A stretch of DNA of 62,541 bases, the filler included, from Diploschistes diacapsis (Eukaryota), in assembly GCA_023645945.1 (NCBI GenBank). It is 23 parts of 23 records of this genome, joined end to end, with 100 filler letters (N's around TTAATTAATTAA, not from the genome) between each part and the next. Parts side by side here need not be neighbours in the genome. Positions count along the whole stretch, not along the records: positions 10,836 to 33,812 come from JALAIB010000271.1; 22 more parts are not named here. The stretch is one strand, 5' to 3'. The position numbers were made by a program, and so were the translations under genes. The notes below the pieces were generated by a model. That model was not told where the DNA came from and ran no database searches. It worked only from the letters and a program-made list of their open reading frames with translations. Positions 10,836 to 33,087 of the stretch are shown here, in pieces (positions within the stretch are counted from its first letter, which is position 1; the number at the start of each line of letters is the position of its first letter).

Positions 10836-11842
10836 ATTTATAAAATTTTATAAATTATAATATTACGTTTATCGAAAACGGTATTAATTATTTCATAATT
10901 AACTTATATCTTTAGAACGCGTCGCGTAACTTATTATTTAAAAGAATATTATAAATCTAATAGTTTTTTATATTACTTAAAGGCATTTTAAAGCTTAATT
11001 ATTTTTAAGACTCGTTAATAAACCTCGCGGAAATTAAACGTATATGTCTGTTGAATAACTTGATCCTATAGTTCTTGACCCTCTTCGGTGCGGCCTTGCA
11101 TTAAATAATAAGTACTTAAAGTTTCCATCGTGCTCAGCGTTGCAGGATGCACGCTTCCATAGTATTGAGACTTCAGATGCCACATATCTGTGAGCATTCT
11201 TTCAGCCTCCGTCAGATGATCTGCTTCCAAGTGGACACAAGCCAGCCCTTCCATGGCCCAAATCAATTTTTCTGTGGGCAAGCCTTCGGTACGTCGAGCT
11301 ACCGAGATTGCTTGCTTATAGAATCGAGCTGCATCGGCATAGCGATAGTGTAGGTGATACTTTCGTGCAAAGCAAAAGGCTTGTTCAGGAGAAAGCGCAA
11401 CCCGTAGGCTCTGATCATAGTTACCGAAAGAACCCTGCAAGCAAGCATTCAAATGGCTTAAAGTTTGCTTCCGAAATGCAAGCGGGTACTGCATCTTATT
11501 GGTCTCCGACAGATAGTGAGCTAGGATCGTGCAAGCCTTTTTGAACAATCCAGGGTCGGAGAGTAGCGCAACAGAAATCGCATCTCGGGCCCCGGCAAGA
11601 ATGGTGAAGTACAGTGCATCATCGAGAGTAGAAAGGGATAGCAGGGACTGTTCTGAAAGATTTTGCAGAATTTTTTCAAACCTGTGTTTGCTCCCGCATC
11701 TTTCGTCCTGAAAGATTTGAATCCAAGCCTCTGCCCTCGTACTAGCGCTGTACAAGATGAAATAATGCTCCGGGATTGGCTCCTCTCCGAAGAGTGTTGC
11801 AAGGGCCAGGAAACGAGACACGAAGGAAGTAAATTGCTGCAT
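10836..11842 (-). pseudogene. NLR-type TPR-repeat protein (kinesin-light-chain-like repeats), RIP stops toward the 3' end
   Basis: RYADAARFYKQA..., AMEGLACVHLEADHLTEAERML...GSVHPATLSTMETLSTYYLMQGRTEEG; premature TAG at 11066 and more stops toward the contig end. Confidence 0.7.
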
Positions 11843-12210
11843 CGGACTGTCTGATTACTGTTAATTGTCGAGAAAAAGTCTGATATAATTGACCGAATAA
11901 TCCAGCATTAATCGGATTAAAGGGCATCTTATATAACTAAGATAAGCAAAAGATGGAACCCCTTTTCTACGGCGCGAAAAGAAATTGAAACGCAAAAAAC
12001 TTCCAACGCGCAGTTTCTGAAACACCCAAAAGTTAAGCGCATAGACTTTGCGTGAATGAACACACCACTTGAAGATGATAAGCGAATTAATAGAATCTGG
12101 AAATATATGTAGAAATAAGATATAGCGCAAGTCGCAAAATTCATACCACCGGACTTCAATTATGGAAAGATCCAAATTCTTGAAATTAAAATCCAATGAA
12201 ACTTCAGAAC

Positions 12211-13992
12211 CTAGACGACCCCCTTTGCAAACGAATTTCCATAACTACGCAGCCAAAAAGGGACTCGCTCCTTTGGTTAAAAAGATGAGAAGACAAGCTT
12301 CGTTTGCTTATTAGCCATTCGTGCGACAATCGCGTGCACTTCGTCACGAAACTCAGCATTAGCAGTAACTAAAGAAGTCAGAAGATAATCCTAAAAAGAT
12401 TCAAGTTACAGATACCTGAAAAGAGAATCTTGCCATTAATCTGGCGAAGTTCTTTATCTAACAGTAAGAACAAATCCACCTTAGAATAGAACTTCTTAAT
12501 GCGACTGTGATCACCGTACTCTTTTGAACTTCCGACGCTTGCCTAAGAATTTTTGAAGTCATTAATAACGTAAAGACGTATCCTTAGAATCTAAGACGCT
12601 TTTAATAGAATAGTCTTCCGATCTTGCATCAAGGGTCTTACATAGGAGCCTTCGTCTAGGTCCAGCAGCGCCTACATCCAATCTTGAACCCAGTTCTCGT
12701 TAGCTGTCGTCGCATCAGTTCTCCGAACTTGTAAATAGGATTGTAGTGTGTAAACAACCCACCTTCTCGATCGAGTTGCTAAACGACATACAGTCTCTGA
12801 GTCCGAACTTCTAGCCTTTTGTATCCTTCAACAATGTGCCTGGCTTGCGGGACTTGAGCAGCGATGCCCACTCCCGAAGCGAATAAAAAGACACTTCCAA
12901 AATCGCCAAACGCATCTCCCAAGCCGTAAGGGCCAATAATCCACGTGGATAATCCATCGGTCGCGCCGGCGTAATTGGCGAGATACCTGGAAAAGCCTCC
13001 CCGGATTTGAATAAGAAGCTCGATCTGCTCGGCCTCTCCACGATCGTTGTTCTTCCACCACGTGATGATCACGTAGGGGTGAGTTTGCAAGAAAGACCAG
13101 AAACTGATCCGCGGCACCCACAAATAAATGAACTAACCTACGCTGACCTTGAATGGTCTTGTAGGTCGAATGGTGAGTCGGAGAGCTTCGTCCGAGCGTT
13201 TAATCCCCATAACGGCTCCCATTCTGAACCCGTAGACATTTCTCCACAATGTCCTTATAATCTGAAAAGAAATCGTCACGGCGAAACATAAAAGACCAGA
13301 CGTTAAATAGAGAAGCGATGACCTCGAGCTCAAACTTAGATGCCTAACGAGCGCAGAGGCCGCGGCAGGAGCCAATAAGAGATGGGATTTTGAGACAAAC
13401 TCAAAATAGTGGTTGCGAAAAAATGAAAGAACGAAGATACATGCAATTGGAGCATTTCCCTGTAGGTCAGGTTAGATCCAGTATCCTAAAAGATAGCGTG
13501 ACATACGAGCAATCCAGACAACTGCGTTGTATCCGATGTGGAGAATGGAAAGAGCTGGAGCTGTACGGCAACGTGGACCACGGCTTGTAACAGAGCCATA
13601 ATTCCGAGCGAGCCGTGAACTACGTGAGCACTTCGAGGAGCAAACCCTAAAAGACTAGCCGCTGTAGTCAAACTCCAGAACATAATCGTTAACGCAAAGT
13701 TGATTACAGCGAGAATTCCCGCCCTTTGCCCTGCGGTGGCGAGACTGCTGATGTGAAAGAAGTTATAAACAAGCGTACCTGCCCAATATAGCAGGTTTAG
13801 AAGAACAAACAGTCGAGTGACGGGAGGGAACAGACGGGTACGCTTCAACAAAATGGGATAAACTACATGCTTTGCCAGGGAAAAGCATACACGATAACGC
13901 ATCGATGAAGAAATCCACCTCAGGAGCCTCCAGAGCAATCGAGCTGCGATGCCCATCATAATGCAAGATGAGTAAACGAGGTCCACAAACAT
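12211..13992 (-). pseudogene. Ferric reductase / NADPH-oxidase-like (FRE) protein, multi-exon
   Basis: Transmembrane part with His pair (HVVHG...VVHV), FAD motif QTHPY, NAD motifs GPYG and FASGVGIAA; W-to-TAG stop at 12779-12781 and a TAA near 12277. Confidence 0.8.
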
Positions 13993-14222
13993 GTTGAGAT
14001 GATCGAAGGAAGCTTATCGCATAACCAGAGACTCGATGAAAAGATATATATAAAAGAGGATCCATTTTGCGGACCACTCATGTTCAGAAGCGCGCGACTA
14101 CGTTTGTTAGTCACCATTCTTCTCCATTCGCGTATTATAAGAAGCCAGTCAGTGCTAAAAAGTTTTAAGCTTTTCGTTGCTTGGAGCAGTCTCTTATACA
14201 GTTTTATTAATCGCCACTGACC

Positions 14223-14731
14223 ATGGGTCGAAAAAGAATCGAGTGTCCGCCGCGCCATGATAGAGAGAGAGTTCGAAAAAGTAAAAGTCATCTCTTCCGC
14301 GCGGCCAAACGAATCACTACCTTGGGCGATGTGGATGTGCAGGTTTTGGTTCGTTATTGCGGCACCTTGTATTCATACATTCTAGAGCGCAGAGCGGATT
14401 GGCCTCCAACCGAAACAGATCGCGTAAGTGGAAGGCTTCCCAGCCAAGCGAAGAGATCTGATTCTTTGATCAGGCCAATGCCACTCCCGTCGATATTCAC
14501 GAAAACAGGAGCCAACCCAAAGCCAAAGTCATGCCCGTCTATCCCGAATTACGATCTCCGCCTATCTTGGAACCATCGCCCATTGAAAAAAGCAATGACG
14601 GTTCTCTATCGAGGGAGAAGATGGAAGCTACATGTGGCACCAATGTAATGAGTTTGGAGCAAAGAATATCCGCAACCCAAAGTCGATTTGGATGCAACAA
14701 ACTTATGGCTGAGGAGGTTCTGAGCAGCTAA
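14223..14731 (+). CDS. MADS-box-like protein (2 exons, intron about 14424-14473)
   Basis: MGRKRI...RVRKSKSHLFRAAKRITTLGDVDVQVLVRY.G..YSY...WPP follows the MADS pattern; a gtaagt...cag intron joins it to ORF 14531-14731. Confidence 0.6.
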
Positions 14732-15131
14732 ACCTCAAGTATGTTCAGGCTAGTTCGGAATTCATACATTATATATAGGTTTAACGTCATGACTTTTCAT
14801 TCTTGCAGAGTTCAATTAGCTGCGAAAAGGTCTAACAGAGCCTTGTGAATGCATTTGATGCTATGTGTCTGATCACGTAGCGATGGCACCTTCTAATTTA
14901 AAATGCGCGTGCTTGATTCCGCAGCAATTCCCAACCCAAAAATCAGCAATAAACGGCTATTATGCGCTCGCTCCCTATTTCTGAACCTATCATTTCTTCA
15001 CTAGCGAGAATGTAGCATTGGAGCTGGCTATGGAATCCATTCGCAGGTACCTAATCGTATAATAACATCAATGCACTAAAAAAGACACAGACTCCATAAG
15101 GAGAAACCCCAGCGCTCAAGCCGACCATCCG

Positions 15132-15938
15132 TCAATAATCCGAATCTTGTTCCTCCGCTATGGTGTTAGCCGCCAGGAGCGGCGCCTCTTCTGCATCCTC
15201 TAGACTTTCAGAGCTAGTCTCTTCAGATTCATGGTGCGTGTCGCGTCGCTGGCGCCTTTCCTGTCTATTTTCGAGGGCCTGGAAAAGTTCCAGCTGCGAC
15301 GCCTGATAGAGCATCCTCATCTCCTCGATCTGTTGATAATCTTGCGTAAGGTTTGACTTTAATTCTTCGATTGTCCTTTGAGAGGCGCGAGTATCCCTCT
15401 TATGGACGTCGATACTCCTGTGCAAGGCCTGGTTCTCCATCATCAACGCATCCTTATCCTTGACGAGCGTCGAGATCGTAGCTGAAGCCACGACTTCGCG
15501 ATGGTTGCTTTGCGAAGAGAGTCGCGAGATTTGATCTCTTAGCCCTTCAATTTCCGCGTCAGCATCTTGGAGCCGCTCCTGCAGGTACATCGTTTCTGTA
15601 TAGTCGTCGTCACTTTCATGCGTGAGGTCGATGGCGTTTTCGGTGTTGTTCATCGAATCTCGGTGCATTGGATTCGAGCAGGGCGGTGAGACGGTCCGGT
15701 TACGGCGGTATCCTTCAAGCTGCTGCGATAAGTTTCTAACCGTTTGCCAAAGATCGTCGCTCGATGCCTGCAGTCTTTCCGCTCTGTCGAACGATTGAGT
15801 GACCCGACGCCAAGTCTCGTTGAGCAGCTCTACGTCAGACCATGAGTTAAAGGATCTGGGCTGCTTTGAGTCGTCAATGCAGGTTGGCTCATATTTTTGC
15901 GCAGGACTCGCGCTGGGTTGTAGTATGGGTCGATTCAT
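15132..15938 (-). CDS. Coiled-coil hypothetical protein
   Basis: Intact ORF of about 268 aa, heptad-rich (LQERLQDADAEIEGLRDQISRL), with an acidic tail. Confidence 0.65.
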   Translation of the reverse strand: MNRPILQPSASPAQKYEPTCIDDSKQPRSFNSWSDVELLNETWRRVTQSFDRAERLQASSDDLWQTVRNLSQQLEGYRRNRTVSPPCSNPMHRDSMNNTENAIDLTHESDDDYTETMYLQERLQDADAEIEGLRDQISRLSSQSNHREVVASATISTLVKDKDALMMENQALHRSIDVHKRDTRASQRTIEELKSNLTQDYQQIEEMRMLYQASQLELFQALENRQERRQRRDTHHESEETSSESLEDAEEAPLLAANTIAEEQDSDY

Positions 15939-16086
15939 CGTGGAACTCAAGACGAGACTCAAGGTGCGTGTAACCGAAGTAAGGGCCGAAAAAGTCGATT
16001 AGCGATCACATATTGACCGAAAGATCAAGAATCATATGAGTTTTTATATTCCTCTTGCTGCTATTATTGGATTCAAAATGCAGCGC

Positions 16087-16705
16087 CTACTGAGATAACG
16101 GGCTGTTGTTATGCCCATGACCGGCGGCGGCCACGGTGGCCATATGCCGCACTTCAGCCAGACTCGCATCATGCCCAGATAACCGCCGAAAATACTCGCC
16201 CGCGCTGAAACCATTCAAGCCGAATGTTATCAGATCACACCTGTCCTTCAGCTGCACGTCCCACTCACCACTCTGACGTAGTGCATGCCAAATCGTTGAA
16301 GGAAGCAGTACCGTTGATTCCTCTTGCCACGTATCACAGTCATTGGCCGACGCTGCATCAGGCACGGTGCAGCTGCCAGTCTGATGTTCAACAGGGTCCT
16401 GGTTCTGCATCCCGCCGGACGTGGCTCGCTATAATGGTTCAGCGTAGCTCGCAAGCTTTCGGACGTATACTTACAATCTTACGAACCTCGTCCTGCACCA
16501 AAGCAGGCTGGTGCGTATGGAGGTATGCCCATTGTTCCTTCACTGACCAGAGCGATCGCGACCGTCCAACCTTTGCTGCGTTGAATCGAGCGTTGACCTC
16601 GGTCCAGGTCTCACCGGGATTGCTGAGCCGAGTCCGCACAAGTAAGCGCCTTTCGGTCTCGGTCCAGAGGACCAAAGGTCGTTTAGCCCTTTTCGGGGAT
16701 GCCAT
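16087..16705 (-). CDS. Myb/SANT-like DNA-binding protein (2 exons, intron 16429-16486)
   Basis: Three regularly spaced Trp: WTETERRLL...WTEVNARFN...RSLWSVKEQW; a gttcgt...tag intron joins in frame to ORF 16087-16410. Confidence 0.7.
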
Positions 16706-17356
16706 TGACGCACGTAGCAATTGAAGGTAAGTCTTTTTTTACATTACAATAAGATGATTGCGTGTATCCTGCACCGCATCTTATACACATCATGCGACGG
16801 TGGTGGGTAGTAGCGAACGAACCCGTTTGTAGCGGAGCTGAGTCGTGTTGAGAGCGTAAATGTTGGTACGCAATGAATGCAGCCCAGACGATCCACTTAT
16901 GATCACATCGCTAAGTGGAGCTACTGCGCAATATTGGCCGGCCGTCTTGCCTGCCTGGGTTACGCTGATCATGATTTTCGCGCCTGATCACACCACTGAG
17001 GGCGGAATACATCCCGCTTGCAGCGCCTTCACCTCGCAAATGCAACTTCAACCCACTCATGAAAGGTATAAGTTTTCTTGACAAGCTCCTGAGACACGTT
17101 CGATGATGGGTGAACCCGCTTGATGCACCTCAGATCTCGATGCGATGGGGGTTCTACAAAAGTCTTCCCCTCTTTGGCGAGTCGCTCTTGAGGCTGGGCT
17201 AAGTGCCGCAGGATCATGATTCCCCCCCTTGGTGGCCAGCAAGCTATAATAGACCCGAGGATCCAGCCTGTGCAGATCTCGCTCTCTCGACCGAACAAGG
17301 CAACTCAGAACCCTCTGAACGCAACCGAAGACTCATTTAACTTTTTCACTTACCTC

Positions 17357-17912
17357 ATGGATCCATTCATGTTGAGTGACCAACCTTCTGATTGGCAGGA
17401 TGACAGCGATTTCTGGGCCGAGATGTTGAAAGGTGACTTCGCAGACCAGATGCTCTCTTCCGACTTTCCTCCTAGTATGCAGCATGGTTTCCTTGATCCC
17501 CTTGATTCAACGAGTCAAATAGACTTGGCCGAAGCATCGTCCAGCAGTCACAGCTTCGAGAGAGCCGTATGCTGCTGCATGCAAGGTCACGCCGCTCGGT
17601 CAGCGCAACGATCTGGAACCGAGAATGAGATGCAACTTGGAGAGAGGGCGGACGTTAACTCCTTGAACAACTTTGAGCTAGACGATAGTCAGCCCCGTCG
17701 GTTATTGGCTCTGGAAAATGAAGTGAAGGCGCTAAAGGCCACCCTGGAGTCTACCCAGACGTTCGTATCGTGATTGCGCTTTGACAAAATCATGGCCGCT
17801 AAGAAATTACAGAACAATCAGGCGCCTGCAAAATTATATTAAGGAAGTTCAACCGTGGATCGTAGAGGTCGCAGAGGTCGTGCGAGGTAGAAAACCGACT
17901 GCTGGCGTATAA
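17357..17912 (+). CDS. Acidic N-terminus plus coiled-coil hypothetical protein (intron 17761-17812; may start at 17216)
   Basis: Spliced C-terminus RLLALENEVKALKATLESTQTTIRRLQNYIKEVQPW; D/F/W-rich N-terminus. Confidence 0.55.
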
Positions 17913-17948
17913 AGAAGGGGGAAGGGGAGTTGGCTGCTGAGGCTTCCT

Positions 17949-18323
17949 ATGTGCATCTTATTACTTTTTTGTCTGTCATCTATGATGGCGCCTCGATGGA
18001 CTGACGATGAAATTGCGGTTATTGTTTACTTTAGATCGAGAGGTTTCAGCATCCCAGAATGTACAGAACTACTTGAGAAAAGGGGTAAATCCAGAACCGT
18101 GACGGCAGTGGCGCAGAAGCTGGTGGAGCTTTCGCAGGCTCACTCCTTGAGTAACGAGGATAGGGAATGGTCCATCGAAAACTGCGACCGTTATATAGGC
18201 ACACTGCGTGTTTATGATAAGTCTGAGCTTCTGTCGCTTAGCGAAGACGAGCGGCTTCTTCTCGAGGTACCTAATAATGCGTTATATTATTCTCGTCTTA
18301 ACGTCTCTTAGCGCCAAGCTTAA
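17949..18323 (+). CDS. Small Myb/SANT-like HTH protein
   Basis: PRWTDDEIAVIVYFRSRG...KSRTVTAVAQKL; probable short terminal intron gtacct...tag. Confidence 0.6.
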
Positions 18324-18476
18324 ATATCAGACATTTAAGGATTGCGTGTGATTATTTTGCGCGAGGATTTGAAGTGCGCGCATTCAGTTTGAAGTTTGTT
18401 ATATTGCCTTTGTCCTTTGTCCAGAGTATGAGACTCTCAGCTTTTTCTGCTCCACAGACCTTCCTTGCATTTAGAC

Positions 18477-19607
18477 ATGCAAACACAATCGCCTCTGGTC
18501 ATTCTGCTTTGCTGTTTGGCGCAGCTCGGGGGATCGATAACTGAAGGCAGTCTCACAGGATGGGGAGCCCTGCAAGTTAATTGTCCACAACAAAGCTCTC
18601 AGCTCTAACATAGACGCAGTGATCAATCGTCAATCGAGTTCCAATTGACCTATGAGGTCGAAGGAGCGAGTTCGGCTCCCTCTTGGCCGATGCCAACGCA
18701 GATGTCGCCTCCGTCAGTGCCGGTCACTGAGCCCGTGGGCATTCCAGCAACATCGTACCTGGCAACTCCGACTGTGCTGCTATCAAGCACAACAAATGGA
18801 TTGTTTCAAAGTGCCGCGAGCTCGACGTCGTACGGCGGGATCCAGCCCGCTGCTACTTCCGCTGCGTCAAGCGGAGCATCCATCCCCGTCGCAGTGGGAG
18901 CCTTCATGGATCCTCTTTCCAACAAGACCAAATTCGAGTTTCGACCGAACAATGTCACGGCTCGCGTTGGCGACTTTATTGTCTTCAACATGCTTGGGCA
19001 ATCTCATTCTGTCACGCAGTCCTCTTTCGACAGTCCATGTCAGAGCCTAGGTATTTTCGACACCGGTCTTTCTCCAAACCCACTTAACGCAAGCAATGCG
19101 GTCTTGAAGTCCTTCCGGGTATACACGAACGAACCGCTGTGGTTCTACTGCAAGCAGAAGGGGCATTGCCAAAAGGGAATGGTCTTTTCGATCAACCCCG
19201 AGTCCAATGCCCAAATGGAATCTTTCGTCAACAAGTCCAAGCTGGATCAAGACAGTGGCAGCGCCAACATGTCTACGGCGCTTACGTCGACTACGTCGGC
19301 TACGTCTGCAGTCGTCACAGTCTTCTCTACCGCAATCGGTTCGGGAACATGCACCGCGTCAGCTCCGTCATCCAACGCTTGCTTGTCCGCGGTTCCCGGG
19401 CTGGGCTGGAACGCGAGCACACCGGCCTCTGGAAAAACGCCCCCTGCTCCAACAAGTCCAATCGCAGGTCCCAGCATGAATGTTTCTACTAACATTGCAT
19501 CGAGCATTTTCTCGGTGCCTACGGGCCACGTTTCAGGAGCAAGAAGGCTGGCTGCACCCACGCTCTACTTCCTAGGAGGGTGCATTATCTTGTGCATCAA
19601 CACTTAA
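18477..19607 (+). CDS. Secreted, GPI-anchored Ser/Thr-rich cupredoxin-like protein
   Basis: Type-1 copper ligands HSVTQSSF...WFYCKQKGHCQKGMVF; hydrophobic N-terminus joined through a predicted GC-AG intron starting at 18572; GPI-like C-terminus SGARRLAAPTLYFLGGCIIL. Confidence 0.8.
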
Positions 19608-20313
19608 TGTTTTGCATCGATTGACGTCATTGCTTGCCTTTCTTCTACTGTTAAGGGACTGTGAGTGAGTCGGGTTAAGTAATCAGGCGTTATAACTTAC
19701 TTCTTGATCTTTTTGAATAGAGTAGTAACGACCTTCAGCAAGTTTGGGCCATGTGGCTGCGGTTTGTTATTATGCATTTATTAACATTGTTTTGAATTTG
19801 CGACTGGGCTGGCACTCCTTGTACTGATAGTCTGAATTCTTTGTAGGTTCATACGAAGGTAGAAAGCGGCTAAAGGGACAATGAAATTCTTTCTTGGAGT
19901 AACTGTTGTTGTGTACGCGGAACCCCGCTAACACCGCTTACCCCACTGCCAGAACAAATGCCTTGCACCCTACCTTTCTTTAGCCTTGCCGGCGGCTGGC
20001 TTCAATTTCGCGTTTTGAAGCACCTTAACAGCAGCAGCAGGGACCTCTGATCATGCGTTATTTTAAAGTAATCGTATATTGAAGATACTTTAATACAATT
20101 ATCAAAATTTTACACTTAAAGGTGCTTCAAGTGTTATTCTACATGTGTAAAGTGGTAATTACTGAACAATTTTTTAATTTCACATATACTTCCTGTAACT
20201 TTGCGCATCTAACATGCCTGGCCATCATCGATTTTGGAAAAAATGAAACCCTTTAAAATTCTGGTTCCCCATAATTTCGCTTTATCTTTAACGCATGATC
20301 AGGAACCAAGGAT

Positions 20314-21453
20314 TTAAAGGCTTGAAATATCACAAACTTGGTGGTTCCGATACCAGCAGCGCTCGACGATCAGAATACGAGGGATCAAGCAACGGGGAGT
20401 TTGGGATATCTTGAGGAATGGATGCTTCCGCCACGTATTAGCTTCTATTTGCCCATTCGGCGCGGAATTACCTGAAGAAGGACGTCTGGCCTCGAAAGCT
20501 CTTTCAATTGCTGATAGAAGGATTTTAAGTCGTCATCCCAAGCTTTACCCTGGAGGTTAAAAGGACTATCAGCATCCTCGTGCCCAGGATCCATCATGCT
20601 TTCCAGCATCTCCCTCAGGCTGGATACGTCTGTCTCCGTGTTGAGCTGATGCTCAATCATGCTGGTACCGATATTTGCTGAACCCACTGTTAGCTAAGCA
20701 TGTTTGGTTTATTCCTGGACCCACCTAGCTTAACGTTTGCTTCGACATCCAACATTACGTTCCCGGCGCTCAGCGCTCCATGCGAGATTTTGAGGACAGT
20801 ATGTACGTATCGAAGACCTCGCAGAACCTGCTCCGGGTCAGCCTAGCAAGTATACGCCGTGACATTGCTACCTCCTTGCAGATCGCGGCGATCTCAAAGG
20901 GCCGCAAGTGCGGGCCCGGCATGACCTGAATCGCTGCCAGAGGAACCGACGTCGGCTCATAAACGAAATAAAAAGCGCCTTCAGAGTGAAAAGCCTCTTT
21001 GAGGGCGACGACGTTGGGATGTTGACAGGAAATTATTCGGTCTGGGCGACATTCGCCAAGCAAGCGTCGAATTGCCACCACAGAACGTGTCGAACTGCGT
21101 CCGTGGGCCACTGTGACCTGTCCAGCTTGGTCTTCGGTCAGCACCGGCTTATACTGATTCCAGGGATCTTCGAGCCGAACAATATCAGAGCGGTGTTCTC
21201 TGTGCGTGGCTTGGACGTCATAACGATGGAGTTCGGCCTGCTGCGGAAGTGATCGTCCAACGGCGCGCTTCTTCGGTGACGACTCCGATGCAGCTGGCAA
21301 GGCCAAGGGTTCAATGGGGCTCTTGGCTGGCGAAACAAAGAGGTCTGGAGAGGGATCTCGCTCTTTACGCTTTGCCGGAAGCTGGAGGTCCTGGAGTCGA
21401 TTACCTGGAAAACAAGTTCGTCGGCGTTCCATTGCATTCACACGCACGAGCAT
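20314..21453 (-). CDS. Protein kinase-like pseudokinase (about 4 exons)
   Basis: VVAIR, QHPNVVALKEAF, FYFVYE, EIAAICKE/VLRGLRYVH...HGALSAGNVML, ANIG, HPFL. Confidence 0.75.
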
Positions 21454-21536
21454 ATATATACGAACAAATATGTAAATCGAAAAGACACAAGGTTTTATAT
21501 AAGAACTCTAACCCCTCTCCGGCGCTTAAATAATGT

Positions 21537-21896
21537 CTAAATTAAAACGACGTCGTCGGCGCTTCCAAGACCCCACTGGTTCAGTACGTCACACTCCGCA
21601 AGCGCGAGCCTCGTAGACAGGTCTTGCAGCGCAGTCTTCTGCTGCTCAAAGATCTTTGTCATTTGCTCCCAAAACACCACCATCGCTTGCACGGTCGACT
21701 TGAGGTGTGCGATTTCCTGTCGAAGTAGACCGTTTTCTCGAACCAGTTCGATCAATCTAGTTTTTTCGTCTTTCGATTGCTGGTCTTCGAACTTTTGAGC
21801 TTGAACGAAGTCCTTGAAATAAGCAGCTCGAGGAAAAGGTATTCCCGCTCGTTCCATGATTGATTCCACTCGCGTGATTTCAGGTGGAGAGTTCAT
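21537..21896 (-). CDS. Small coiled-coil hypothetical protein
   Basis: Intact 119-aa ORF (LVRENGLLRQEIAHLK), 83 bp upstream of and co-oriented with the pseudokinase. Confidence 0.65.
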   Translation of the reverse strand: MNSPPEITRVESIMERAGIPFPRAAYFKDFVQAQKFEDQQSKDEKTRLIELVRENGLLRQEIAHLKSTVQAMVVFWEQMTKIFEQQKTALQDLSTRLALAECDVLNQWGLGSADDVVLI

Positions 21897-22262
21897 CGTT
21901 GGGACTGTCAGCCTAAGAATTGGTAGAGGGAGGATGAAAGCAACCTTGTCTCAATACTCTTCTTTCGTGTTCTTTCAGACGCTTCTCAATGGAATTGGAT
22001 GCTTATGCATACTTTCACTTATTTTTTCTTCTCCTCTTATCTCTTTACTTTTTGCGCCGCATTTTATTTTGCGACCTTATTTTTTGCGCGGTGGAAAATT
22101 TGGAGTGCTGCCCGTACTCAATTTCCTCCCCTAATTTCTGGCGCAGTATGATAGAAAATGATTAAAGGGCATGCATTCCTTAATTCTTATCGCATGATTT
22201 CGTTAATACCCGTCAATGATATTTAATACATTACACTTTTAATAGCATCGACTTACATCATT

Positions 22263-23765
22263 ATGCCACCTAAAGTGCCTGACGGTGTCATCACATCCAA
22301 ATGGCGGAGTGGTGATGGTGATAAGGGCAGAGATGGAACGAGCGACATTGAGGAAGATGAAGAAGGAAGTAATATGGAAATCGATCAAAATGAACAGCAG
22401 CAGCGTGAAGCTTTCCTCGCCCAAGGTCATACGTCAAAACGAAAGATGGATCCACCAAGGGGACCCATGAAACAGGCTTTGGAGATGGCAAAGAGCAACT
22501 TCGGGTCGTTTTGGGAGGATGGAGGTGCGAAGCTGCCTCAGAAACTCCGGAAAAAGCTTCGCGAGAAACTCAAACATTCACCCTACACGCCGCCATTTGC
22601 AGAAATGGAGCAGCTCAAGCGCGATGCGGTCAAGCTCGTCAAAGAAGGGCCCAACGACCTGAAAAATTGGCACGAAGCCTACCAGAAAGCCAGCCACTTC
22701 ACCCAAAAGATCATTCAATCGGGCCTCGAAGGATTCAACATATCCCCACCCGATGGCTGGCTCGAGAAAGCCACAGGACAGAAACCTCCTAAGTCCGATG
22801 CGGAGGCTGTCCCATTGTCTGGAGATACCGACGAAGACAGCAATGGATCCAGCGATTCCGAAAGCTCGGCGGATTCTGACGAGGTTGGGAAAAGCGATGA
22901 CGAATTCGATGCAGATGCGAGCGACACCATCGAAGCCTTGGCCGAGGCGAGCGGAGCGCAGCTGCCCTTATCTTCCGAAGGGGATAAGATCCTGGCCTAT
23001 TCTGCTCGGGGCAACGTTTGGGAGGTTTTGGTGAAGCAAGGCGGGGACGACAATGTCAGATACAGGATGATGCCCGCCAACGGGGCGAAAGGTTTCAGCA
23101 AGCGGAACCCTGTACAGCAAAACCTTGCAGAGGGCCAGAGAGGTCTAGAATTGAATCCGGACCGCAGCATGGTTTGGAAGTCAACCGACGTAAAGGCAAT
23201 CAAGGGGGTGGCTTGGAAGGAAAGCGGCGATTCCGAAAATCCGCTCGACGACATGTTTCCTGGAAGAGAACAAGAGGATCGCTTTCCCGTGACCCGAGTC
23301 TACATTGAATGGACTAACAACAAGAAAACCTGGGAGACGCGGACGACCGTTCGAAAATTGTATAGCAAAAACATTACCGATAAACTGATCTACCAGCGTG
23401 CTGGAATCGCAGAACAACGATGGCGCCGTGACAAAGGTCTCGACCCGATTCGGGTGCAAAAGATGCAGGTCGGCGACGAAGCACCTACTACGTCAACGGT
23501 GGGTGGCTCCGTCCGATGGGCGCCACTGAGTACTGGGGAAAGAAGCTATCGATCAAGAAGTACGCGGGCTGCAAGCACTCGGACGTCAGTCACCCGGGCC
23601 TCACGCCCGTCCAACGATACCCTCCGTGAACTCGAAATCAATGCCCGATTTGAAACAATCGAGCAACAATTTATACAATTTTCGAAAGATACTGCCAGCA
23701 TTATACGCAAAGAATTACAAGCAACATTACGATCCGAACGCAAGAAATCGGCGAAGAAGGGCTAA
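22263..23765 (+). CDS. 500-aa hypothetical protein with an acidic tract and a chromo/chromo-shadow-like motif
   Basis: Longest intact ORF in the window; IKGVAW...TRVYIEWTNNKKTWETRTTVRKL; basic C-terminus (ERKKSAKKG). Confidence 0.75.
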   Translation: MPPKVPDGVITSKWRSGDGDKGRDGTSDIEEDEEGSNMEIDQNEQQQREAFLAQGHTSKRKMDPPRGPMKQALEMAKSNFGSFWEDGGAKLPQKLRKKLREKLKHSPYTPPFAEMEQLKRDAVKLVKEGPNDLKNWHEAYQKASHFTQKIIQSGLEGFNISPPDGWLEKATGQKPPKSDAEAVPLSGDTDEDSNGSSDSESSADSDEVGKSDDEFDADASDTIEALAEASGAQLPLSSEGDKILAYSARGNVWEVLVKQGGDDNVRYRMMPANGAKGFSKRNPVQQNLAEGQRGLELNPDRSMVWKSTDVKAIKGVAWKESGDSENPLDDMFPGREQEDRFPVTRVYIEWTNNKKTWETRTTVRKLYSKNITDKLIYQRAGIAEQRWRRDKGLDPIRVQKMQVGDEAPTTSTVGGSVRWAPLSTGERSYRSRSTRAASTRTSVTRASRPSNDTLRELEINARFETIEQQFIQFSKDTASIIRKELQATLRSERKKSAKKG

Positions 23766-24249
23766 AACCCTTAAAGAGGAAGCACCATAGGCCGCCATAA
23801 ACCACGATTTCATTTATCGTTTTGTTCCTTTTTCTCCATTCCAGTAGAGTTTAATCGTTCGTTCTGTTTCCTTAGAATCATATGACACCTTTCTCGTGCT
23901 TTAACATTCGCTTTCGAGTTTAACATAGATTAATCTATAGTCTTAACAATTAATTTTGCCTATCTCATCCTTACACTCATATATTTGTGTTCTGAAACGC
24001 TATTTACAACAATTACCGTATAACCTTTAACTTTTTAGTAGGACCCGTCGCCGTGAAGGATGTCTAATAATAGCCGTAGATTTGCTCAAGCTTGAGCCCA
24101 GAAACTTCATGAAAGCTACTGCCATGATCGAGGTTTTCGAACTAAGTTATTATGTCGGCGCTGTCAAGAAGAACTCAGCCGATTCGTGGCATATAAGATG
24201 CGCACCAGCATAATTTCGAAGGGAAAGAGTTAATAGTTTTCCAATGTGA

Positions 24250-24386
24250 TCATGAGTGGGAAAGCGGATCGCAAGCACGGAATAGTCTCCGTTGATATAA
24301 GCGGTAGATGATCTCGGCGCCGTTCATGAGTGTAAGCACGGTGTACTAAATTACTGAAACTCTGGATCATGAGTGAATCATGGGTG
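24250..24386 (+). promoter_or_regulatory. Cluster of TCATGAGTG motifs upstream of the 24562 gene
   Basis: Exact copies at 24250, 24324 and 24367; near-copy TCATGGGTG at 24378. Confidence 0.35.
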
Positions 24387-24561
24387 CTTATAATGCGACT
24401 AAAAATTCTAAGTCTGAACAGAAACGCTATGCTGCAGGGGTTGGATTTTGATTAGTACGGTCTCTCTTCCTTTGAAAACAGAGTTGCTTGTGCGAATATT
24501 CCTTTCCTTTCCTCCAAATCGTTTTGTTTTTCTCAAATACTGCAAAGATCTACGGTTAACC

Positions 24562-25391
24562 ATGAATCCAAGGAAGGACCTGACGACTGCGAATGTTAGT
24601 CGTCTATATCAATGCCATGGGCTTGCTGATCACAATAGAAGTCCTCATTCAATCCGCCATGGTCCGATACCGAAGTGATCAATGAAGCATGGAGACGTAG
24701 CGCTGCTGCCGTAGAGAAATGCCCTCGTTTGGAAATACAAGTCGCAAACCTAAGTGTCGGCGTACGGAACCTAGGCAGCCAATTACAGTCCTGTAACCGG
24801 GCTTTGAATTCTCTTCGAGTGAGGCTCCAGGAGGCCGAAGCGGCCTTAGACCTTGCAGAGAGTGTCCAAAACCGCTGTGAGAACGATCTACGCGCCGCCA
24901 ACGAAGACAAGAAGGTTTTGTTACGTGATATTGCCGGAAAGGATCGAGAGCTGGAGAAAACCAGGAACGACCTCCTCGAATCTGAGCGCAAGCTGGAGCA
25001 GATGCTGGGGGTTGAAAAAGAGGAGGATGCCATGATGGTCGAGCAAGTAGACGTGCTCTCGGAGGAGAGTGAGGAACTCGGAGTGCAGGTGGATCAGCGG
25101 TGGCCGAAGTTGGTCAACCAGATGGCTCACTGGTATCAGGACTTACCGAAGAGCGAGGAGCTGGAGGTGCACCCAAAAACTAGGCAGCATACAACGCTGC
25201 GAGATCATACCTTTGGACCTAATTTGCGGAGCCAATCTCTTGGTCCGGCGATCCACCCATCTCGGAAATGGACGAACTCTCCAGCGAGCCAACCGAAGGC
25301 CGTCAGCATCAAGCAAATGTTGAATGAAAACGATGCCAACGTTCTACTCTCAGCGAACAGTTGCTCCAAAGAGGATAAGCCTTCGGCGTAG
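24562..25391 (+). CDS. Coiled-coil hypothetical protein (intron 24595-24638)
   Basis: An ATG exon spliced through gttagt...tag is in frame with ORF 24675-25391; long heptad region. Confidence 0.65.
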
Positions 25392-25775
25392 ACCAGGATG
25401 TAAAGAGTATCCATGTCAATCAGAACCCGAAATTTTGTACGCATTGATGGTGCTTGGAAAGGGGTCGTTTTTTCATGTTTTTGATGCGAGCCGAAGACGG
25501 CATTTAATTAACTATCAGTGGTTAAATAGTGTTGAAATTGAAATTTCTTTCCACGTGTCCTATTCCAGGTCCCAAATGAATATTCATGAGCTCCATCCTT
25601 GACATACACCAGCAAAAAGACGTCCTTTCGATAACGAGAACTCCATTCGGTCTGTTCTCTCGCGCGTCAGATAGCCATCTGACGCGCAAAAACATGATCT
25701 AGATACACGGCGACTGCGGGAGGAATTTCTCGGCTTTGATCTCCGCGACAGCTGTAGAATGATCGAATGGATCGT

Positions 25776-28700
25776 TCAACTTCGAAGCCTTTTTCCTGGG
25801 CGAAATTGCAAAGACCCCATTCTTTTCCTGTTTGACAAAAGACCCATTCTTTGGTCTTTGATAATGTCGCACTTCACGCAATGAGCTCTTGTCGTATCCC
25901 TGTGATCCGCGGAACCGAAGGCAGCGTCGAGACCTTGCTAAGCGATGTACCACCTGATCGACTGAAGAGATCCGCTGATAGGCCTTTTCGAATCCGCACC
26001 TGCCTACAAATATATTATAAAGACAGCATCAAGATCGCGGACCTGCAAAACAAGCGGTTTCTGAAAACGTTGACAGAAAGAACACACGTCTGACTCTAAA
26101 AAGGGCCCAAATCGGGCTACGTCCGTAATGATCTCGGCGCTAAGAACTTTTTTACGGATATTTGGAATGATGTCCAACGCAGGGAACCTACACCTCACTC
26201 TTCCGTGACAATGAAACATACCATCATGGTATTTTGATACGTCATCTAATTAAAAAAAAAAGGTCGAGCTAAGCAGTGCGACGACGGTCGTATCTAGGTA
26301 ACCACGGTCCTTTTCTTACATACGGACTGTGTCCTTTAGGAATTCCATCTTGGAGGCATCGTCGAGTCGGACACTTTCGCCTGCCGGAAGCGGTACGTTC
26401 AGTCGAATGTAAGAACTCCTATACGCATGATCCAGACGCCCTACGAGCTCACGCCATAGCGCCTCACCGTTAAAGGAATAAAGGAAGGAACGTACAAGGC
26501 GAAAAAGAAAAGAACTATGGAGGAAGCTGTTCACGGGGGAAAGCGCGCGACCGGGTTTAGAATGCTCTTTACCTATACTCAAAAATAAAGTTACGTCGAT
26601 ACTCGCTGTTGGCCAAACCTGCTGGGCCTCGCGTAGGGCAAGGTTGACCGGATTATTGTACCGTAGGCCTCCGTCCTGGAAAAAGCCGATGCTCGCTATT
26701 TGTGCTGGAGGGAACAGACTGGAAGCATTAGACGAAGTTCACATAATTGGGAGATGTCGTACATTGGAGCAGCAGATGTTGCACGAGCACTAAAGATGAT
26801 CAGCCGAAGCGCCATTTACTAAATATAGGGGTAACTCACGCTTCCTAAATCATGGGATCTGGAAGTTAATCCCCTCGGAGTAATGAATAACCTGATGAAC
26901 GTTGGACCTTCAAAAGTACCATTCTGCGAATGAAACCTACCGCATTCATCCGGTCGAGTTTCTGGACCGTTGTAATTAGCCAAGACGCAGGCAGACGCAT
27001 CGGTCATCGTCGTGGCTGTAACGGCAATTTTAACGCCAGAAGACGACGGACCATCAATACCAAAAAGAAGACTATCGCGACCTAAGTTCTGCTATAAGAA
27101 TTGTTGAAAAAGCTGATTATCATAATAACCGTTCATTAAAAGACAAAAGAATGCGTCCTTGAATCTAAAAAACATCCCTCGCGAAACCCTTTTTCGCTTA
27201 AAAAAGAGCTGCTGACCGAGCGTAACAAATTTTGAAGCATAAGTAAAAACGTCCCATCCTTTTAAGAACACCCCCAATACTGTTAGACCTCCTGGTTTCG
27301 TCAGTCATCCGATCCAGCTGCAGCACTCCAATCTCACCCGAGCTTGTCCCAAACACAATGTCGAAGAGATCATACATCTGGATGCGGGGCCCCAGGTCCT
27401 GCTACAGCATCTAAAGAAACTCTAAAGGTATTACGCCGCATACACCTCCGCCGTCGATAATGAGGATACGTATTCCTACTGTTAACGGTTTCAGTCTTAC
27501 TGACAAATTATCCTTCCCCCGACACACGAGACATTCAGATAAATAAAAAAGAAACTCGTTGGATGGTAAACTAGATCCGTATCTTTGTACGCATGTATCG
27601 TAAATATAATATCCACACGATTACCGATGCTCCGCGTATCGAGCGACGCAGTAAAAACAAGTCCAGATATGTTGCTTAAGTTGCCATACGATTGAAATTT
27701 CTTGTAAAACATCCTGACGCATGCTTAATACGGAATAATTTCCAGCAAATATTGCAGTCGAAAGCTTAACAAAACACTGTTACACTTCTGCATCGTAAAT
27801 CTCTGCGATCTCCACATCCTCGTAAAAAGACCGCAGAGCGTTACGGCAAGGCTCGGCAAAAAGCGACTGATAAAACATCCTGAAATCAAATCCTGCGCAA
27901 GTCAGCGGAACATACACGACATGGAAAACGAACTATACATTTCTAACGGATATGCTTCTACAAGTAAAACAGAAGCAATGCAGCGGACCACAGAATCGAA
28001 CGCATAATCTTTAGTCATCCGCAGGAAACAGATAAAGTATTATAATAAGCCTTATAAAATAGGATTAAAAGCGCGGGCGGCGCATATCGGATCGTAGGGG
28101 CCAATAAATATAACGCTCGCCCGGCTAGCCATGTCATCCAGATACCAGCGCAAATGAGACGCCGAGAAAAGAAGATACTTGCGTCGGCGCTCCTCCCTCT
28201 TACTATCAGCTTCGTCGCGAATAAGATCCCTTAAACGCTGATAACGAGCCAAAAAGGAAACCCGATCTCCAACAAGTTTTACAATCTTAATCGAAAACGC
28301 TTGACTGGTCAACGAACGACCATCGTCATCCATAAATTCCTAACGAAAGTTATCCTCTTCTAAAAGCTAGAAAGTGGGACCAGTGTCTCCATCCGTGGTT
28401 ACGACCAGGATATTCGGAAGGATTCGTCCAGTTGAAAAAGGTTCAGCCATGGCCCACAACTTGAGGCACGTGGTAACGCCTCGCAACCCACCGTAATCAT
28501 CTGCCAGAATGCACACAACGTCAGCCATCACCAGTGAGAGACGGGCGTGAAGTGAAGCGACCAGCGCTTCAGGCAGAAGTGCTTCGCCTTGCAGCGGCAT
28601 AGTGTGGTAGACATGGCAAGCAACGTCCCGAGATTGCATGTTAAGAGGGCTACGTAGATCACTATCAACAAACACGAATGGATTTTCTTTGTCTATCGAA

Positions 28701-28942
28701 GCATAATCGAGCCGAATGTTCATAAAGGCTCGATCGGTCGAACGACGAATATTATTGCAGGAAAAAAGTTCTCGAAGAGCAACGTCGATGCTTTTGTTGC
28801 CAAAAAAAGCCACGATGCTTGGAAACTGTTCACGGATATTAGGAAGATCTGAAAACAAACGATCCAACCGTTGTCTGTCCTGCAAAAGAAGTTGATGATC
28901 AGGGCGTAGTCGCAGCCAGGCGACGTGATCGCACTTGCCCAT
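25776..28942 (-). pseudogene. Patatin-like phospholipase (PLP), Starship type, with RIP stops
   Basis: RILIIDGGGVCG, DIVFGTSSG nucleophile elbow, ARATSAAP, FQDGGLRYNNP; several in-frame TAG/TAA stops (for example EFL*ML*QD). Confidence 0.9.
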
Positions 28943-29212
28943 GGCGGCAAAAAGGTGAGCAAAGGTCGATGAATAATGAAATATAATCCAGAATGCCAGA
29001 ATGAAAGCTTGCCAGGTTGTCCAAAAAAGAAAGAAAACAGATGTATGTTTAGGAAAGACAAATGGGAAGGGTATTTGTTTCTTTGGGAGAATGCTGCTAC
29101 GCTGGTTTTGCGCACAGTAGTCAATCGAGGCGCAAAAAGGAAGCTCTTTACACTAATACCTTCGATCTCCCTGATCCAATGGTGACTCTTCAATGCCTAT
29201 CTATCTCCTGCC

Positions 29213-31551
29213 ATGGATGACCGTCTTCTTGGAAAAGCAAGATCCTTTCTAGGTCGGGCCAAAGTGGATATTAGTATCTAGCCTACAGTTCAAGCCTCGC
29301 AATCGGTGTCAGGATAAAGATAAACGGAAGACTGATCGCTTACTCAGCATTTTTAGCCGAGAAAGGTGTTTACGGAACGACCCTGATCACTTTATTCCTA
29401 CAGTTATCGCTCCCGATGCTCTTACTGTCGCACTACAACGGTCAAGATTAAATCCCTCCGACCTGAATCTGAAAGATACACCTCCCTTTCTCAATCTAGG
29501 CGATTTAAAAATCTCTTGCCTTCATGGACAGCACAGGATTAAGACCGCTAAAGCGTTTCTTTCACCTTTCGATAAATGGTGGATCGTGGACCTATACGAT
29601 GAAAATGGGTACCCCTCTTTAAATCGTGCAGCACCGCTAATAAGACATAGCATTAACGCCTAACCTTACCGCATACATCAAAAACGCCTATACAAATTCC
29701 TTAAACTACTGCCATAGAGACATTTATCTGAATCTCCGGCAATATCAATTGCAGAGGCGAGCTGAACAAATCAACAGGTAGCTTACACGGCTTCATCCCT
29801 CTATACAGAATGATCTCCTGCGATTCCAGAAACGAAAAGACTTCGATCTCTTGCGTTCTCTCCTTGACAGTTTGCTTCCATTTCTCGATCTTTGGCCGGC
29901 CTTGCAGCTTAGATGTCTGCGTCGTATTTTTAATATTCATCAGCCGGAGATAAAGCGCTCCATTCTTTCTGAGTTTACCCGTGCTAATACTCGAAAGGAA
30001 CTAACGTGCTACGTTCGGGAAATATACGACACATAGAGCGCCATCCTTCAGAATCAGGCGACGCTTTTTCACTCTTTGGATTTTCGAACAGTTGAGGCAC
30101 TGCAGCTCCGTAACCCATGCCAATGTCCGAAAGATCGTAAATACATCGTAAGAACAATACAACAGCGCCGTATATTTCGATTAATAACAAATCCGGTCCT
30201 TCGTCAATCCATACTTAATCGAATAATGAAAATCGACCATGAAATTCCTAGCCTCCATACCTTTCTTGAAGATACGAAATGGCTTGAGCCATGTACAATC
30301 GTTGTACGAAAACATCTTTTCCCCTTAGGCAAAGGCTCATGCTATTCATACTTGTATCAGCATTTCGACTTTACTCAGGAGAGCATGATCGAAAAGTCAG
30401 ATCTGGAACTAGAACCTGCAGTCGTTCAAGACCGGAAGGAAAAATTTACACTCGCGTACCGGCAACTTTACATGTACGCATGGCGCCATTTTCCAGAACT
30501 TTCCAATTTTGTTCCCCGGACTGCATCTACAAAACTTAACACGAAGTCGATTCACTCTTACAAGCCAAAACGTAATAGGTACAATCCTATCGCTGGACAT
30601 AGACTTCAACAACTGGCTCGAGATCTTGGATTTAAGACCGAAATTCCATGCGTCGATGCGGAAATCAATATGATTCTGAATTTTCTTGAAGAGATACGAC
30701 CTCATGAATCATACCCGCTTCACTCTAATACGCGAATAGGGCTTACACGGAAACTGCGATAGGAAATTAATCGCTACAAAAGTAGGATTTCCGACCATCG
30801 TAATTCAACAGATAACCCAGAGATACCCATTCAGTATCGTTGCGGCCGCCCTTCAAATACATCTTATCGAACGACAAAACCAGATTTTTTCTACAAGAAT
30901 ATCTACGAGCACTCCGATTTTCAAACGGCTAATTGTTTTCAAAACAATACGAACATCTTTAAGCGGTTTTTCGGCAAAATCTCCGGCGCATTCGAACAAT
31001 CACCGATCCCAAGCAATGAATTACAGATCTCGTCGCCCACCTTGGAGTTAGAAGATCCTAGTGATACTCAAGAAACATTACAAGAACAAACAAATACCGG
31101 TTTCCATGACGTGAAAAACCGAAGTAAAATATCATCCGCGATTGAGACACGAATTACAGGTCGCAAAATAATACAGATACCTCCTCAAGCCAACTCAAGG
31201 ATAAACACTCTCACTTCAGGTTTAAAGGGGTATAGGACGCAGACCCATCAAATAAATAAAATCACTACAATCATCATCGACAATAAACCGGATACAATTA
31301 ACCGCTAGAACCTCGATCAGGAGCTCAGACGCTTCAATCAAAGTGAACACACCTTTTAGATCTTCTCTAATAACAGAAGTCTCTCCTTTTCTAACAAAGA
31401 GACGGCCATAGCGAGCTTAACGGGCGTTGCAACTAAAAATGTGCTGCACATATATCCAAGAAACCAAGATCCGTTTGCTAATAGGACTGATCACTGTTTT
31501 GACGAAAGGGACGGCTGTCGTTGCACGCGTGCGAAAAAAAAAAAAAGATGA
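29213..31551 (+). pseudogene. DUF3723 domain protein (end approximate)
   Basis: RLLSIF..E.CLRNDPDHFIP, CLHGQHRI, KWWIVDLY, IPSLHTFLEDTKWLEPC, AYRQLYMYAWRHFPEL, RCGRP. Frameshift near 29275, TAG stops, and an intron donor mutated GT to AT near 29949. Confidence 0.9.
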
Positions 31552-32099
31552 TAAATTTCATGAAACATCATAAGCTATATTTAGGACGTAGGATATGATT
31601 ATCTCATTCTGCGGCTATTTATTTTTTACGCCCAATTATTTTATGCTCTTACTCTTTTTTTCGCGCGCGACCCATTTCGTGAAGTACGGACCGTCGAGTT
31701 GAACCATAAGTATGCTCAATTCTATCGTATCTTTCTAGAGCCCGCATCTGATTCAATTATAACATCGCCACGCTCAAGCAACATAAAACGGGCTACTAAT
31801 AAACGAAAATATCGTCTCAAGATGTCCGCACATATTCGTAAATCAACGATTTCTTTCTAACAACTCCTAATAAATTGGCCAAGGCTCAATAAGCATCCGT
31901 AAGGACCTTCGGGTTTTCTTATATAACGAATCGAAATACGGAACTACTGTGAACTTCAAGAATCAAAATGAAAACTTTCTGCGGAAGAGAGATAAGAGAT
32001 TTCAAACCTAGATCATCGAGGCACTAAAGTAAGGTTATCGTTACGATCGATAAAATAAATAAACTTTAGTTTTGAATCGAGTTTCCGAATCATCGAGCA

Positions 32100-32920: not shown

Positions 32921-32924
32921 TCTT

Positions 32925-33087
32925 TGTAACAGCGGGGGTAGTGCCTAATAGGTAGCGCTATCCCACTGAGCCAAAAGACTAACCACAATGCTTTCAGGAA
33001 CCCCGAAGCATTGTTTCCCTATTACACTATATGTAGGTGCGTGGCTGTGGCAGTAGGCGGCAGATGTGTAACCCCGCAGGCCTTACA
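32925..33087 (+). mobile_element. LTR (family D), no 5-bp TSD
   Basis: Near-identical to 5631-5793; flanks gtctt and cttat do not match. Confidence 0.85.

Follow-up and report, generated by a model that had tools for sequence, protein, structure and literature searches.

A ten-gene block of putative regulators in the interior of a RIP-damaged Starship-type element of Diploschistes diacapsis

Starships are giant transposons of fungi whose auxiliary families are DUF3723, FRE (ferric reductase), PLP (patatin-like) and NLR (PMC11162782). Earlier work has described the elements with their auxiliary genes as well as a MYB/SANT gene in terminal position (PMC12256816; Tangerine in Xanthoria, 10.1101/2025.11.25.690456). 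The present study deals with ten consecutive genes, g1 to g10, of a contig from Diploschistes diacapsis (assembly GCA_023645945.1). This contig, G000:C1902 (23 kb), occupies positions 10836..33812 of the window, i.e. the whole stretch of 62,541 nucleotides that was analysed, in which short contigs are joined by N linkers; only 10836-33812 is continuous with the ten-gene block, the rest of the window consisting of unrelated short contigs. The contig is best read as the interior of a giant transposon of Starship type, carried by a lichen-associated ascomycete and eroded by repeat-induced point mutation (RIP) mainly from the flanks. As for the block itself, we see about an even chance that it was put together within one lineage from a recurrent pool of regulators resident in Starships, and that it includes a small local regulon marked by a shared promoter word.

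Compared with described Starships (PMC11162782; Tangerine), the contig is similar in its auxiliary families, lichen setting, largely unannotated cargo and RIP-type decay, whereas it displays no captain, direct repeat or terminal inverted repeat. The terminal MYB/SANT gene, proposed to help transposition, is paralleled here by a Myb/SANT-like gene in a Starship-like region; however, the published gene is located at that edge of the element which faces away from the captain (PMC12256816), while g3 and g5 (190 and 98 aa, both below the Pfam cut-off) are internal, between the FRE and the patatin-like gene and at least 5 kb from the contig end. In the same line, the 20-kb Vl43LS region of Verticillium longisporum (PMC8295516) can be likened to the block, by description only, as a set of mostly unannotated genes with putative transcription factors in a Starship, but differs from it in that a host phenotype has been demonstrated. 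Neither MADS genes nor pseudokinases nor the g9 family appear among the auxiliary genes listed in the available parts of PMC11162782 and 10.1101/2025.11.25.690456, and the word MADS has no occurrence in the main texts of these two papers.

Recurrent families in the ten-gene block

The ten genes read as follows, in window coordinates.

14223..14731, plus strand: g1, MADS-like protein (152 aa) from an accessory subfamily; an intron, inferred at 14424-14473, comes after its WPP motif
15132..15938, minus strand: g2, 268-aa coiled-coil protein, paralogue of g10
16087..16705, minus strand: g3, 190 aa, one Myb/SANT-like repeat; intron inferred at 16429-16474
17357..17912, plus strand: g4, 167-aa acidic protein with a C-terminal coiled coil; intron inferred at 17761-17812
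17982..18323, plus strand: g5, 98-aa three-helix protein, helix-turn-helix (HTH)/Myb-like by motif only
18477..19607, plus strand: g6, cupredoxin (362 aa), secreted or on the surface, type-1 copper ligands present; inferred GC-AG intron
20314..21432, minus strand: g7, 326-aa pseudokinase with a short C-lobe; three introns inferred
21537..21896, minus strand: g8, 119-aa coiled-coil protein, head-to-head with g9
22263..23765, plus strand: g9, 500 aa; residues ~225-400 form a Pfam-less domain with an N-terminal three-strand barrel and a chromodomain-like half
24562..25391, plus strand: g10, 261-aa coiled-coil protein, paralogue of g2; intron inferred at 24595-24638

The preliminary description of this locus had reported ten consecutive stop-free genes at 14223-25391, and such genes can indeed be read (7,359 coding nucleotides) once introns are allowed for, seven of the ten models depending on introns inferred from splice signals and selected so as to keep the frames open.

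The identification of g1 as MADS-like, also proposed there, holds, though g1 has no match to Pfam PF00319 (SRF-TF). It arises from an atlas comparison (0.89, with 205 of 256 features, the ten best named matches all falling in one family or clan) and from a hidden Markov model (HMM) of three Pfam-positive MADS-like genes of the genome, against which g1 scores 27.8 bits, as high a score being reached by none of 2000 shuffles. In the genome searched (29.1 Mb, 4,361 contigs), SRF-TF matches are found on five contigs, two of which are among the four other DUF3723 contigs representing 0.26% of the genome (binomial P 7e-5), and the accessory MADS subfamily, g1 included, is present on three of the five DUF3723 contigs. 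A WPP-type motif with a GT donor seven or eight residues on is common to g1, the two copies on DUF3723 contigs and the copy on contig C736. Besides g1, the genes sharing this motif and the intron position are the following, all of them frameshifted or broken and two of the three on DUF3723 contigs.

C4007:4272-4661 (locus L038): MADS-like gene
C4298:~3800-4050 (locus L036): MADS-like gene
C736:~4300-4560 (locus L052): MADS-like gene

Published elements carry such genes as well. SRF-TF is found in at least 116 rows of the pan-fungal Starship table, 62 of these coming from eight genera by genome code, while MADS-box is given in at least 43 rows for Aspergillus fumigatus Starships, 30 of these all from three named families; Hephaestus, too, bears two MADS genes. 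On our contig, the FRE lies head-to-head with g1 at a spacing of 230 bp, and a MADS gene (minus strand) stands head-to-head with an FRE (plus strand) in A. fumigatus Logos-h1 (63 bp) and Nebuchadnezzar-h1 (287 bp; PMC12153272, Table S5), the likeness extending to the short spacer and to a short kinase-domain gene and a DUF3723 gene nearby, whereas the other neighbours and the gene order differ. Moreover, the MADS, FRE and DUF3723 genes of Logos were reported as up-regulated under the same condition (PMC12153272). The pairing is not general: Gnosis-h1 has a MADS gene and no FRE (PMC12153272), and in ten MADS-bearing elements with full or partial gene lists the two genes are head-to-head in two, tail-to-tail in one (Morchella) and non-adjacent in seven, which supports a reading in which gene order varies. 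In four Aspergillus Starships of these lists (PMC11162782 Table S7, PMC12153272 Table S5), DUF3723 has a kinase-domain gene of ~0.9-1.2 kb as its head-to-head partner, possibly forming another unlisted auxiliary pair.

The second recurrent family is that of g9. With a profile of five relatives, it comprises 192 clusters at E <= 0.001, from Lecanoromycetes to Eurotiales; the five named close relatives belong to Thelotrema, Gomphillus, Trapelia, Letrouitia and Agyrium (lichen-forming or related fungi), and six of the ten named members looked up are from Aspergillus and Penicillium. No relative was found in IMG/VR (45 pattern matches, none confirmed). The shared domain has a Pfam match in none of the 60 members scanned, and Pfam Chromo is matched by none of 61. 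The preliminary description had called g9 chromo-like, and this likeness is consistent but weak, three signals agreeing and none being significant alone. Firstly, the 176-residue core, modelled at a predicted local distance difference test (pLDDT) score of 91, has no Foldseek match at E 0.001, and in a wide structural search chromodomains and chromoshadow domains rank first at Z 2.5-3.6, i.e. below significance, all of the first 7 matches and the majority of the first 20 being chromo-type and the best match reaching Z 3.6 with a root-mean-square deviation of 3.2 over 58 aligned residues. In addition, the single sequence match of the g9 profile in the PDB is the SUV39H1 chromodomain (E 0.13, not significant), and the atlas places g9 near chromo clusters at 0.82-0.84. 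Like the chromodomain and chromoshadow family (HP1, SUV39H1, Rhino, Chp2), g9 has three strands together with helices, and a W-x(6)-TWE-type motif, whereas it is distinguished by insertions, the extra N-terminal barrel and a missing third cage aromatic. At what we take to be the equivalents of the chromodomain cage positions, an aromatic residue is present at 305 in 91% and at 350 in 100% of 120 rows, but not at 352-353; because the third cage aromatic is missing, binding of methyl-lysine by g9 is not implied. A further tryptophan, W318, is conserved in 97% of these rows. A control of chromatin by the block would have nothing beyond this weak likeness to lean on.

Regarding the other genes, the earlier proposal of two Myb/SANT-like proteins stands in part. 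While g3 is weakly Myb-like (Pfam Myb_DNA-bind_6, E 0.002, 18.7 bits, under the cut-off of 22.9), g5 was not confirmed, since the Pfam scan gave no Myb match and only MerR at E 0.03; its model has three helices at a low pLDDT of 48 and no Foldseek match at E 0.001. Searches of the PDB with g1 and g3 (phmmer) returned nothing meaningful, and within the genome g1, g7 and g9 match only themselves at the sensitivity of a protein search. The cupredoxin and the pseudokinase are both borne out. The former, g6 (Pfam E 2e-5), has hydrophobic N- and C-termini and intact His/Cys/His/Met copper ligands, which point to a secreted or surface-bound rather than nuclear protein; its family is multi-copy, with relatives on five other contigs. 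The latter, g7, shows weak Pfam Pkinase matches (E 0.04-0.13), and is considered a pseudokinase because all four catalytic motifs are absent (GxGxxG, HRD, DFG) or altered (VAIK to VAIR). At its 3' end, an imperfect inverted repeat (29 bases, separated by a spacer of 19 bases) is found at 20247-20323. As for the four proteins designated as coiled-coil, an uncalibrated scan of the block gave its top four heptad scores to g2, g4, g8 and g10, and g2 and g10 turn out to be paralogues (42% over 52 aa of the N-terminal region, E 1e-6), a relation that had not been noticed before. A possible in-frame GC-AG intron near the start of g2 (15830-15911) approximately matches the intron place in g10. Finally, the view that a content free of metabolic enzymes sets the block apart from typical cargo was overstated, non-metabolic cargo being the norm in Starships: a median of 49.9% of their cargo is without COG annotation (PMC11162782), and A. 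oryzae Starships often bear DNA-binding proteins and kinases (PMC13562431).

A word shared by resident promoters

Three promoter regions of the contig share a short word.

14075..14085, plus strand: copy between FRE and g1, with one mismatch to CACTCATGATC
16884..17232: divergent g3/g4 promoter, with one 1-mismatch copy (16894) and several 2-mismatch copies
24244..24386, minus strand: g10 promoter, with three copies of CACTCATG

The 8-mer CACTCATG occurs five times in 4,958 intergenic bases against 0.13 expected (once in FRE/g1, once in g3/g4 and three times before g10), and an 8-mer this extreme was absent from all 200 simulated sets; CATGATC reaches a family-wise value of 0.02 in intergenic DNA. 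With at most one mismatch, the combined 11-mer has five sites, which are all intergenic, whereas it does not occur in 205 kb taken from other loci. The word is absent from 35.6 kb of host-type loci, a small sample. The g3/g4 and g10 promoters further share matches of 16 bases (94%) and 21 bases. Another word in common, TATAAGATGCG, was noted at 16765-16785 and 24192-24212, in the g3 and g10 promoters, ATAAGATG having a family-wise value of 0.26.

Other patterns were considered in the same regions. A relaxed CArG pattern was not enriched (8 against 4.1 expected), and two intergenic CTA(A/T)4TAG sites exceed expectation and, being AT-rich, may be RIP products. As an enriched word, TTTTGCG (9 against 1.7) was rejected, its family-wise value being 0.195 and a related pattern not rising above whole-window shuffles. 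TTT(T/C)GCG, which resembles SBF/E2F-type sites but is not significant after correction (0.195), was seen in 7 of 15 intergenic regions (11979-32710), among them the divergent promoters of FRE/g1, g3/g4, g8/g9 and patatin/DUF3723. What had looked like a conserved non-coding element of 73 bp, in common with contig C3956, turned out to be the LTR-like repeat, at 32988, and the promoter of g9 is single-copy.

Broken flanks and open frames

The block is bordered by the following features.

11066..11842, minus strand: open reading frame (ORF) with TPR repeats (Pfam TPR_12, E 2e-10), a probable NLR remnant by inference
12300..13992 (lower end approximate), minus strand: Starship-type FRE, broken; FAD_binding_8 above cut-off, one TAG inside
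25500..28942 (lower end approximate), minus strand: patatin-like gene with many stops; no Pfam match
29367..30975, plus strand: DUF3723 gene, broken (E 1e-63), three TAG within the match, head-to-head with the patatin-like gene
32927-33812: repeat resembling a long terminal repeat (LTR), seen again on C3956 as well as on further short contigs in the window

Four Starship auxiliary families are thus represented on one contig, which defines its Starship-like setting: DUF3723 and FRE matches exceed the Pfam cut-off and the TPR ORF is present, while the patatin-like gene is named from a DGG-type motif read by eye, which we take to be that of patatins. The LTR-like repeat is the likely source of RIP at the right contig end.

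For comparison, a copy from run X2 of another study was used, whose eight listed pieces span the region throughout and keep its order; run X3, which gave scattered low-depth pieces only, was left aside. The best-matching sequencing run for the contig is a lichen metagenome. Window and X2 differ at ~550-600 positions, the window having A for G of X2 at 355 and T for C at 77, with ~120 differences of other types; among 30 placeable A-for-G or T-for-C changes, the context is CpA for 16 and CpT for 10, which fits RIP. Divergence amounts to 0.8-1.2% in three central pieces and to 2.5-6.1% in five flanking ones (FRE and g1, 2.5%; g9 end to patatin tail, 2.8%; patatin-like and DUF3723 genes, 3.5-6.1%). 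In X2, sense codons stand in place of the two in-frame FRE stops at 13133 and 12779. The assembly, in which copies may have been collapsed or lost, yielded no DNA duplicate of either the patatin-like or the DUF3723 region.

In order to compare the open frames with chance, neutral RIP was simulated over the ten genes, the variable being the share of X2 differences that are RIP hits in the window lineage. At shares of 100%, 78%, 50% and 25%, 9.4, 7.4, 4.7 and 2.4 stops are expected and the probability of none is 0/1500, 0.0007, 0.005 and 0.08, respectively; the share inside the block may be near the low end, and the base-level differences viewed were 40 of ~600, all left of 14118. Since the ~120 differences of non-RIP type could cover much of the central 1%, these figures are suggestive only of selection, rather than chance, as the reason for the open frames. 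Of the 30 X2 indels, 12 were viewed, and five in the block (17222, 17342 and 22128, of 1-2 bases near g4 and g9, as well as 16883 and 16924) all lie between genes, the frameshifting ones at 17222 and 17342 being upstream of the g4 start.

Elsewhere in the genome, a DUF3435 gene on contig C3847 (6095-8262, locus L041), whose matched segments are stop-free and which adjoins a TPR/NB-ARC-like gene, is by its sequence a candidate active captain that could act in trans. In the window, a separate GC-rich short contig (9031-10735), unlinked to the block, bears a 163-aa ORF at 9353-9844 with no Pfam match.

Origin and role of the block

According to the reading of a lineage-specific assembly, an accessory MADS subfamily, Myb/HTH, kinase-like and coiled-coil proteins and a chromodomain-like family would constitute a pool whose order is reshuffled among Starships, and g6 would be one captured secreted cupredoxin added to it. 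An element-encoded DNA-binding protein (g1, g3 or g5), or a host factor, would bind CACTCATG(ATC), and its binding before FRE/g1, g3/g4 and g10 would switch the resident genes concerned in concert. The role of partners or scaffolds could fall to the coiled-coil proteins and the pseudokinase, and the block would tune the expression of element genes, not excision.

A number of points weigh against this proposal. The promoter word was found post hoc, its 11-mer having been built from these very sites; one promoter holds three of the five copies, which could stem from a local duplication; and the word is not a CArG box, no CC(A/T)6GG being found on the contig. A large protein search gave no candidate homologue for exon 1 of g1, nor any for g7, for which it was run over 'longer' lengths, unsuitable for 326 aa. 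Homology of the A. fumigatus MADS and kinase genes to g1 and g7 is by annotation only, and the A. tanneri relative of g9 is not among the delimited Starships in the published table rows listed, nor is the accession of the A. melleus one. Besides, no DUF3435 captain is found on the contig (14 matches are on other contigs of the genome), nor are terminal direct or inverted repeats or an empty site, the element ends lying off the contig, so that its membership in the Starships is by association only. As the contig ends in RIP-mutated repeat DNA, linkage to a captain is not visible.

The genes could, alternatively, be neutral passengers, functional in an ancestral element, dying with it and intact merely because RIP barely reached the unique centre. 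The fall in divergence from X2, from ~5-6% near the LTR-bearing right end to ~1% in the centre, agrees with such a view, as do the ~120 differences of non-RIP type, the 0.08 probability of no stop at a 25% RIP share, the choice of intron models for open frames, and the broken state of the three other MADS-like genes on accessory contigs. However, 4.7-7.4 stops are expected at RIP shares of 50-78% and none is seen, the adjoining FRE has at least two in-frame stops at just 2.5% divergence, and the five block indels named above are all intergenic; we find neutral passage rather unlikely. To a similarly low degree, we can envisage that selection on the fungus keeps the block after the element genes died, the regulators rewiring host genes (development, symbiosis) or part of the block being an addiction or toxin-antidote unit, with the cupredoxin at the cell surface. 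That FRE, patatin-like and DUF3723 genes are broken while ten genes are open would fit a benefit to the host, as would a secreted g6 from a multi-copy family, and there is a precedent in Vl43LS, where 20 kb with seven genes, two of them for putative transcription factors, change host virulence (PMC8295516) and lie in a Starship (PMC12289983). On the other hand, the shared word marks element promoters, including that of FRE, and is absent from the small sample of host-type loci, and no toxin or antidote domain was detected.

The preliminary description favoured a conserved module controlling element transcription, chromatin or transmission. A fixed module of this kind, controlling Starship transcription, chromatin protection or transmission across Pezizomycotina, is in our opinion very unlikely. 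It would be in keeping with the 192 clusters of the g9 family, from lichen fungi to Aspergillus and Penicillium, with their chromodomain likeness, with the MADS-FRE linkage across two fungal classes and with the syntenic copy in X2; but the latter, the sole syntenic copy found, is 97% identical and hence the same element rather than a case of independent conservation. No fixed ten-gene module was found, although some of its gene types recur in other Starships. On 143.5 kb of nine other DUF3723 or captain contigs of the genome, searched with corrected models, no homologue of g2-g10 was detected (tblastn to E 0.2 gave three short noise matches, and the g9 profile none). Likewise, four metagenomic loci of a distant g9 subfamily, on contigs of 2-16 kb, have no tested cassette gene alongside (the g7 and g10 queries being faulty); their neighbours are HET, RING, NACHT and hydrolase-like genes. 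Two of the loci with HET, RING and NACHT genes are the following, the g9 copy of L017 being degraded and bordering AT-rich DNA.

L016:1-5711: distant g9 relative
L017:1-6091: distant g9 relative

Published elements, moreover, vary in gene order, and a role in transmission, for which the block offers no support, is contradicted as a requirement: mini-Pegasus, a captain-only construct completed by the terminal sequences and a marker, is able to transpose (10.1101/2025.02.28.640899), and the passage of Hephaestus between species took place in the absence of intact auxiliary genes (10.1101/2022.08.04.502770), which makes a fixed module governing transmission the least likely of all. As Hephaestus carries its two MADS genes, a modulating role of such genes is compatible with these data. 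What stands in favour of the earlier regulatory reading is the Starship-like setting, the enrichment of MADS genes on DUF3723 contigs, their pairing with FRE here and in two A. fumigatus families, and the promoter word, whereas the conserved module is not supported, and the ten genes are not established as a unit.

A broader reading, improbable as we judge it, would be that Starships encode a small nuclear circuit of their own, made up of resident families not described before, in which the accessory MADS protein paired with FRE, Myb/HTH proteins and the pseudokinase co-ordinate element genes through an element-specific word, while the g9 family, across Pezizomycotina, shields or targets element chromatin as a new chromodomain-like reader. 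If true, such a circuit would have a counterpart in the regulators of integrative conjugative elements of bacteria, and would provide a handle on the timing of Starship switch-on.

In the literature searched (outside subscription papers and bioRxiv supplements), no description of the MADS subfamily, the g9 family or the promoter word was found, the Starship MADS-box being mentioned in passing (PMC12153272). How Starships control themselves, and what their many unannotated residents do, is an open question that the contig addresses through three leads: an accessory MADS subfamily associated with DUF3723 elements and, in some cases, head-to-head with FRE, a widespread, well-folded and Pfam-less chromodomain-like family, and a promoter word that may be specific to the element. 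Should these families be confirmed, the set of auxiliary genes by which Starships are found would grow, and direct tests of Starship self-regulation would become possible.

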